Source of the DNA: Escherichia coli | GTDB taxonomy: Bacteria; Pseudomonadota; Gammaproteobacteria; Enterobacterales; Enterobacteriaceae | Reading direction: 5' to 3' (one strand) | DNA: 64,000 bases | Assembly (NCBI RefSeq): GCF_013122565.1 | Contig: NZ_CP053258.1 | Part shown: piece after piece, positions 46,636 through 46,776 of the stretch | How the letters are laid out: each line of letters begins with the position of its first letter | How positions within the stretch are numbered: the stretch's first letter is position 1 | Translations under genes and position numbers: made by a program | Notes under the pieces: generated by a model | Told to the model about the DNA's origin: nothing | Databases searched by the model: none | The model's input: the letters and a program-made list of their open reading frames with translations, nothing else

Positions 46636-46663
46636 ATGTTCGTGAATTTACAGGCGTTAGATT

Positions 46664-46687
46664 TACATACATTTGTGAATGTATGTA
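46664..46687. promoter_or_regulatory. AcrR operator: 24-bp palindrome TACATACATTTGTGAATGTATGTA
   Basis: Perfect palindrome read from the sequence in the acrR-acrA divergent intergenic region; it matches the AcrR operator sequence as I recall it. Confidence 0.8.
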
Positions 46688-46776
46688 CCATAGCACGACG
46701 ATAATATAAACGCAGCAATGGGTTTATTAACTTTTGACCATTGACCAATTTGAAATCGGACACTCGAGGTTTACAT

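Follow-up and report, generated by a model that had tools for sequence, protein, structure and literature searches.

The divergent region between acrR and acrA of Escherichia coli contains a long inverted repeat, and the locus raises the question of what this repeat does and where the sites for the activators of acrAB are located. Among the intrinsic multidrug efflux pumps of E. coli, AcrAB-TolC is the main one, and one of the common ways in which clinical resistance arises is the loss of repression by AcrR. The window analysed here is a stretch of 64,000 nucleotides (contig NZ_CP053258.1), for which a sequence-only reading had proposed a perfect 24-bp palindrome as AcrR operator within an intact local repression circuit, and had placed MarA/SoxS/Rob-type sites in the same intergenic region. 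The features of the locus are listed in Table 1.

Table 1. Features of the acrR-acrA locus, in window coordinates.
Feature	Position	Strand	Basis and remarks
acrR CDS	45988..46635	-	ORF list; TetR-family repressor of 215 aa
Marbox ATGGCACGAAAAACCAAACA	46616..46635	-	MarA/SoxS/Rob class I site; codons 1-7 of acrR; in backward orientation with respect to acrAB
Spacer between marbox and -35	46636..46661	strandless	26 bp, weakly conserved; presumed path of the alpha-CTD, inferred from the paper on the RamA class I complex
acrAB -35, TTTACA	46662..46667	+	Consensus scan; conserved in at least 95% of 95 distinct Enterobacterales sequences
AcrR operator TACATACATTTGTGAATGTATGTA	46664..46687	strandless	Left arm 46664-46673 (TACATACATT), centre 46674-46677 (TGTG), right arm 46678-46687 (AATGTATGTA)
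acrAB -10, TACCAT	46686..46691	+	Consensus scan; conserved; 18-bp spacer
Inferred acrAB transcription start	46697..46698	+	6-7 nt past the -10 element, and published marbox centre at about -71.5
acrA 5' leader	46698..46776	+	Conserved block, CsrA-type motif, Shine-Dalgarno sequence
Conserved block AACGCAGCAATGGGTTT	46709..46725	+	17 nt; about 85-95% or more across 95 distinct Enterobacterales sequences
TCGGAC, CsrA-type	46756..46761	+	Secondary CsrA site in Salmonella (PMC5727465)
Shine-Dalgarno GAGG	46766..46769	+	
acrA	46777..47970	+	ORF list; 397 aa
acrB	47993..51142	+	ORF list; 1049 aa; follows acrA

The gap between the two divergent genes corresponds exactly to positions 46636..46776 and comprises 141 bp with a G+C content of 35.5%. 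The encoded AcrR is the K-12 protein without any difference; against the NCBIfam AcrR equivalog it reaches 419 bits, with a cut-off of 271, and a PDB sequence search matches it over its full length (residues 1-215) to 2QOP/3BCG. Both acrA and acrB are intact in the window. AcrA carries three substitutions relative to K-12 (T104A, T166S and D222N). The 401 bp centred on the operator are 100% identical to MG1655-derived or K-12-derived genomes and to many other E. coli genomes, and in these matching genomes the genes on either side are annotated as acrR and acrA. Over 6.4 kb, the window differs from K-12 by 79 substitutions, most of them in mscK and none in the intergenic region; judged by its sequence, the window is from a non-K-12 E. 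coli. Of the 5446 hits for the acrR-acrA region in the E. coli genome collection, two lie on records labelled as plasmid.

The inverted repeat was found between acrR and acrAB at exactly the coordinates that had been reported, preceded by GATT and reading TACATACATT TGTG AATGTATGTA, followed by CCATAGCAC. The description as a perfect 24-bp palindrome does not hold: the reverse complement of TACATACATTTGTGAATGTATGTA is TACATACATTCACAAATGTATGTA, the site is self-complementary at 20 of its 24 positions, and the architecture is 10+4+10, with perfect 10-nt arms flanking a non-palindromic 4-nt centre (TGTG, complement CACA). In the 64 kb, the pattern of the arms is found at a single place even when up to three mismatches are tolerated, and it is absent from 100 shuffled sequences.

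Intergenic DNA rich in A+T favours self-complementary runs, and the low G+C content of this region raises the odds that the repeat is a functionless product of chance. However, when the 141-bp region was simulated 20,000 times with a first-order Markov model, a perfect inverted repeat with 10-nt arms and a spacer of 0-10 nt appeared in only 35 of the simulated sequences. The repeat is moreover conserved throughout the order at a fixed offset (see below) and is identical to a binding site in experimental use. A chance origin thus has practically no likelihood left, and it is the conservation data that refute it. The only other perfect inverted repeats with 10-nt arms in the window are at 6594-6623, 15579-15608, 25906-25929, 29034-29060, 35368-35397, 37357-37380, 44931-44960 and 56412-56437; all of these are rich in G+C and resemble terminators or REP elements, and the one at 44931-44960 is located inside mscK. 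A direct repeat of 78% identity (46633-46650 versus 46666-46683), which sits in the poorly conserved spacer, was also considered and is taken as chance.

At 24 of 24 positions, the repeat is identical to the AcrR site published for the acrAB promoter (Su et al. 2007, cited through PMC9769551 and PMC10597343). A mismatch with the experimentally defined site, named beforehand as the result that would speak against the assignment, was therefore not observed. In PMC10597343, the AcrR site is described as "two 10-bp inverted repeats separated by 4 bp", and the same two sources report that AcrR shifts the acrAB promoter, as seen by EMSA and fluorescence polarisation, and that it is freed by ethidium and polyamines (PMC9769551, PMC10597343). 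The inverted repeat at 46664..46687 is almost certainly the AcrR operator of the E. coli acrAB promoter.

This operator is nearly invariant within the species. A 64-bp query around it is 100% identical in 5276 of the 5423 E. coli genomes that hold the region, and the remaining 147 genomes show one to three mismatches. A single difference from the window, C>T at 46655 and thus 9 bp upstream of the operator, is present in strain C43(DE3), and upstream variants of this kind may explain many of the 147 genomes. The 30-mer at 46661..46690, which includes the operator and was searched with a 28-nt seed that any operator mismatch would break, is present with the exact operator in 5382 of 5426 complete E. 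coli genomes, while about 41 genomes differ within this central segment.

For the comparison across species, loci were retrieved solely by a degenerate codon pattern for the AcrR N-terminus (MARKTKQxAxETR), which avoids a bias towards the operator. This search gave 120 loci, nearly all from Enterobacterales, of which 116 had enough upstream DNA. The arms were recovered with at most three mismatches in 112 of the 116 species loci, nearly all of which place them 28-30 bp from the acrR ATG. The four loci without operator are the same loci in which the wobble bases at the start of the gene depart from the marbox sequence. The non-enterobacterial records of the set come from Desulfobulbus, Burkholderiales and Roseateles, whose regulators share the N-terminus MARKTKQ.

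Per-position analysis of the 112 Enterobacterales species shows an essentially invariant left arm and a right arm that varies only at positions 15 and 20 of the operator (46678 and 46683), where A and T alternate. The centre is free at positions 11-13, with an entropy of about 0.9-1.15 bits and variants such as TGTG, TATG, CGCG, TGCG and CACG, among others. At position 14, the G at 46677 is invariant in all 112 species, whereas its symmetric partner at 46674 varies. The 112 species contain 22 distinct operator variants, and all 24 changes in arm pairs are one-sided, with no compensatory change among them. One-sided changes in the arms combined with a free centre indicate a protein-binding site of two half-sites and a loose spacer, and not a conserved helix.

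The same data bear on the proposal that the repeat acts as a nucleic-acid hairpin, either as a stem-loop in the acrR leader RNA or as a DNA cruciform, instead of as a protein site. The predicted fold of the minus-strand transcript does contain a stem of 10 bp with a loop of 4 nt, but its energy is ordinary (z = -1.5, with 17 of 200 shuffled sequences folding as well), Rfam returns no match, and a conserved stem is difficult to reconcile with the complete absence of compensatory changes. The RNA hairpin was rejected on these three grounds, and the hairpin reading as a whole is considered highly improbable. The AcrR operator thus remains the preferred explanation of the repeat, with the reservation that a pure spacer model leaves the invariant G at 46677 unexplained, which counts against it. 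The evolutionary asymmetry of the operator, including this central G, is a mildly new observation. It is possible, as a tentative interpretation of the alignment, that the operator is functionally asymmetric, either because the two AcrR dimers bind in a non-equivalent manner or because a second overlapping signal or regulator constrains the site. The second signal may be the extended -10-like TGcTATGGT for acrR on the opposite strand, or it may be a second regulator.

A rather doubtful extension of this idea is that the site is shared by AcrR with another protein, such as the paralogue EnvR (AcrS) in E. coli, or OmpR, as proposed for Yersinia; this would be compatible with the assignment as AcrR operator. 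The invariant central G and the uneven conservation of the arms could reflect such an additional constraint, and an OmpR site overlapping both the AcrR motif and the -35 element has been proposed in Y. enterocolitica. EnvR represses acrAB. The 398-bp envR-acrE intergenic region of MG1655, however, contains no operator-like repeat, and its best candidate has 7 mismatches in the 20 arm positions. Nothing at the sequence level thus supports recognition of the AcrR motif by EnvR.

The position of the AcrR operator within the promoter suggests how repression would be achieved. The assignment of the -35, -10 and +1 positions combines a consensus scan with conservation and published geometry, and the scan detects a single promoter on the plus strand. 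In the 95 distinct sequences, conservation within the intergenic region is strongest in the block that extends from GATTTACA through TACCATAGCAC, with the exception of the operator centre. The operator reaches from within the -35 element to within the -10 element, i.e., from about -34 to -11 relative to the inferred start. In Yersinia, a putative AcrR motif at -52..-29 from the acrR ATG overlaps the acrAB -35 element and has the same offset as here, and in the class I promoter of K. pneumoniae acrA the RamA/marbox site is located at about -71.5, in agreement with the inferred start. Both the Yersinia offset and the K. pneumoniae marbox centre are therefore consistent with the placement of the start in the window.

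The two 10-bp arms would serve as half-sites that are read by the helix-turn-helix domains of AcrR, and the 4-bp centre would act as a spacer with little sequence requirement. AcrR bound across the -35 and -10 elements would then sterically exclude RNA polymerase from acrAp. Any acrR promoter must be located to the right of the operator or overlap it, so that acrR transcription should be blocked as well. Such autoregulation is probable, as acrR must either start at the site or be read through it. On the minus strand, the consensus scan finds two weak candidates for an acrR promoter. The minus strand also reads TGcTATGGT at 46695..46687, which resembles an extended -10 element and might be used by acrR, and ATAGCAC, downstream of the acrAB -10 element (46687..46696), is conserved. 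According to the literature, AcrR is released from the operator by ligands that include ethidium, rhodamine 6G, proflavine and polyamines. Binding of AcrR as a pair of dimers is suggested in PMC10597343.

The same principle is found in QacR-IR1, TtgR-ttgABC, MtrR-mtrCDE and TetR-tetO, which share with the present locus a divergent repressor gene, a long inverted repeat on the pump promoter and ligand-induced release. The sequences of the QacR, TtgR, MtrR and TetR operators are unrelated to the AcrR operator. QacR places two dimers on its operator, and by analogy with it the suggestion made in the literature would give AcrR a similar arrangement. The PDB sequence search gives TtgR (E = 2e-44) and MtrR (E = 2e-32) as the solved relatives closest to AcrR, and no AcrR-DNA complex could be recognised by entry name among the results. 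The closest system is the acrRAB locus of E. coli K-12 itself, with the same 24 bp, the same flanks and the same gene order, and without any difference in operator or AcrR. The K-12 operator was reportedly described by Su, Rutherford and Yu in 2007 and by Ma et al. in 1996. The feature is thus a textbook AcrR operator of wild-type sequence, which is real, functional and already known. The proposal of an intact local repression circuit is sustained at the sequence level by the wild-type operator, the K-12 AcrR and the intact acrA and acrB.

The conserved block AACGCAGCAATGGGTTT of the acrA leader overlaps an imperfect inverted repeat (46706-14/46719-27). The predicted fold of the leader is not unusual (z = -0.5). 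Neither the leader nor AACGCAGCAATGGGTTT matches an Rfam family, and a search for a known function of AACGCAGCAATGGGTTT found none. AAGGA, the primary CsrA motif, is absent from the E. coli acrA leader.

The activator sites are not located where they had been expected. A scan of the 64 kb with the marbox consensus AYNGCACNNWNNRYYAAAYN returns a single exact match, at 46617..46635 on the minus strand, where 0.06 would be expected by chance, and this match is in acrR coding sequence. Within 46636..46776, no site agrees with AYNGCACNNWNNRYYAAAYN even when two mismatches are allowed. The claim that MarA/SoxS/Rob sites reside in the intergenic region between acrR and acrA is therefore incorrect, as the marbox lies inside acrR, one base outside that span. 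The intergenic ATAGCAC at 46690-46696 was considered as a second marbox and rejected, because its AAAY half is shifted by 3 bp from the required register and the sequence does not reach the limit of two mismatches. Of the 14 positions that the marbox consensus specifies, the start of envR in MG1655, ATGGCAAAAAGAACCAAAGC, agrees with only 12.

This placement of the marbox agrees with published work. The marbox corresponds to the first 20 nt of acrR, and deletion of acrR leads to psoralen resistance only if the first 21 nt of the gene are kept (PMC11642870). In truncation EMSAs for Salmonella, RamA does not bind to a fragment comprising -141..+16, which is equivalent to the intergenic region, and requires -161..-142 (PMC2527123). 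The Salmonella RamA site, counted from the acrA ATG, is the same 20-mer, ATGGCACGAAAAACCAAACA. The marbox in the window matches the consensus exactly, in backward orientation, and its centre is at about -72 from the inferred acrAB start; the RamA class I complex of K. pneumoniae likewise has the backward orientation and a centre near -72. A class I marbox of the mar/sox/rob regulon at acrAB was reportedly described by Martin et al. in 1999. Compared with the location assumed for this site by the earlier reading, the marbox is found here in the acrR coding sequence and outside the intergenic interval. The chicken isolate E. coli Z1323CEC0008 carries an IS481-family element between the marbox and the -35 element, at 46657..46662 of the window, with the target duplication TTAGAT. 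The operator of this isolate is untouched, while the activator site and acrR are displaced by about 1.1 kb from the acrAB promoter.

The marbox has left a trace in the coding sequence. In the 112 species, the wobble bases of acrR codons 2-6 have an entropy of at most 0.15 bit, with the exception of codon 5, which uses only C or T, exactly what the Y in the consensus permits. Codons 7-13, which were equally constrained by the search pattern, show a wobble entropy of 0.84-1.95 bits in the same species. On these comparative grounds, the synonymous sites of acrR codons 2-6 are frozen across the order, which shows that the marbox has long acted as a constraint on the evolution of a coding sequence. 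This synonymous freezing under the marbox, throughout the order, is a mildly new observation.

With operator, repressor and marbox all of wild-type sequence, the window gives no sign of derepression of the pump. For annotation, the activator site of acrAB is to be corrected from the intergenic region to the coding sequence of acrR. The location of the activator site inside acrR also means that full acrR deletions remove activation together with repression, and that phenotypes change as a result (PMC11642870).
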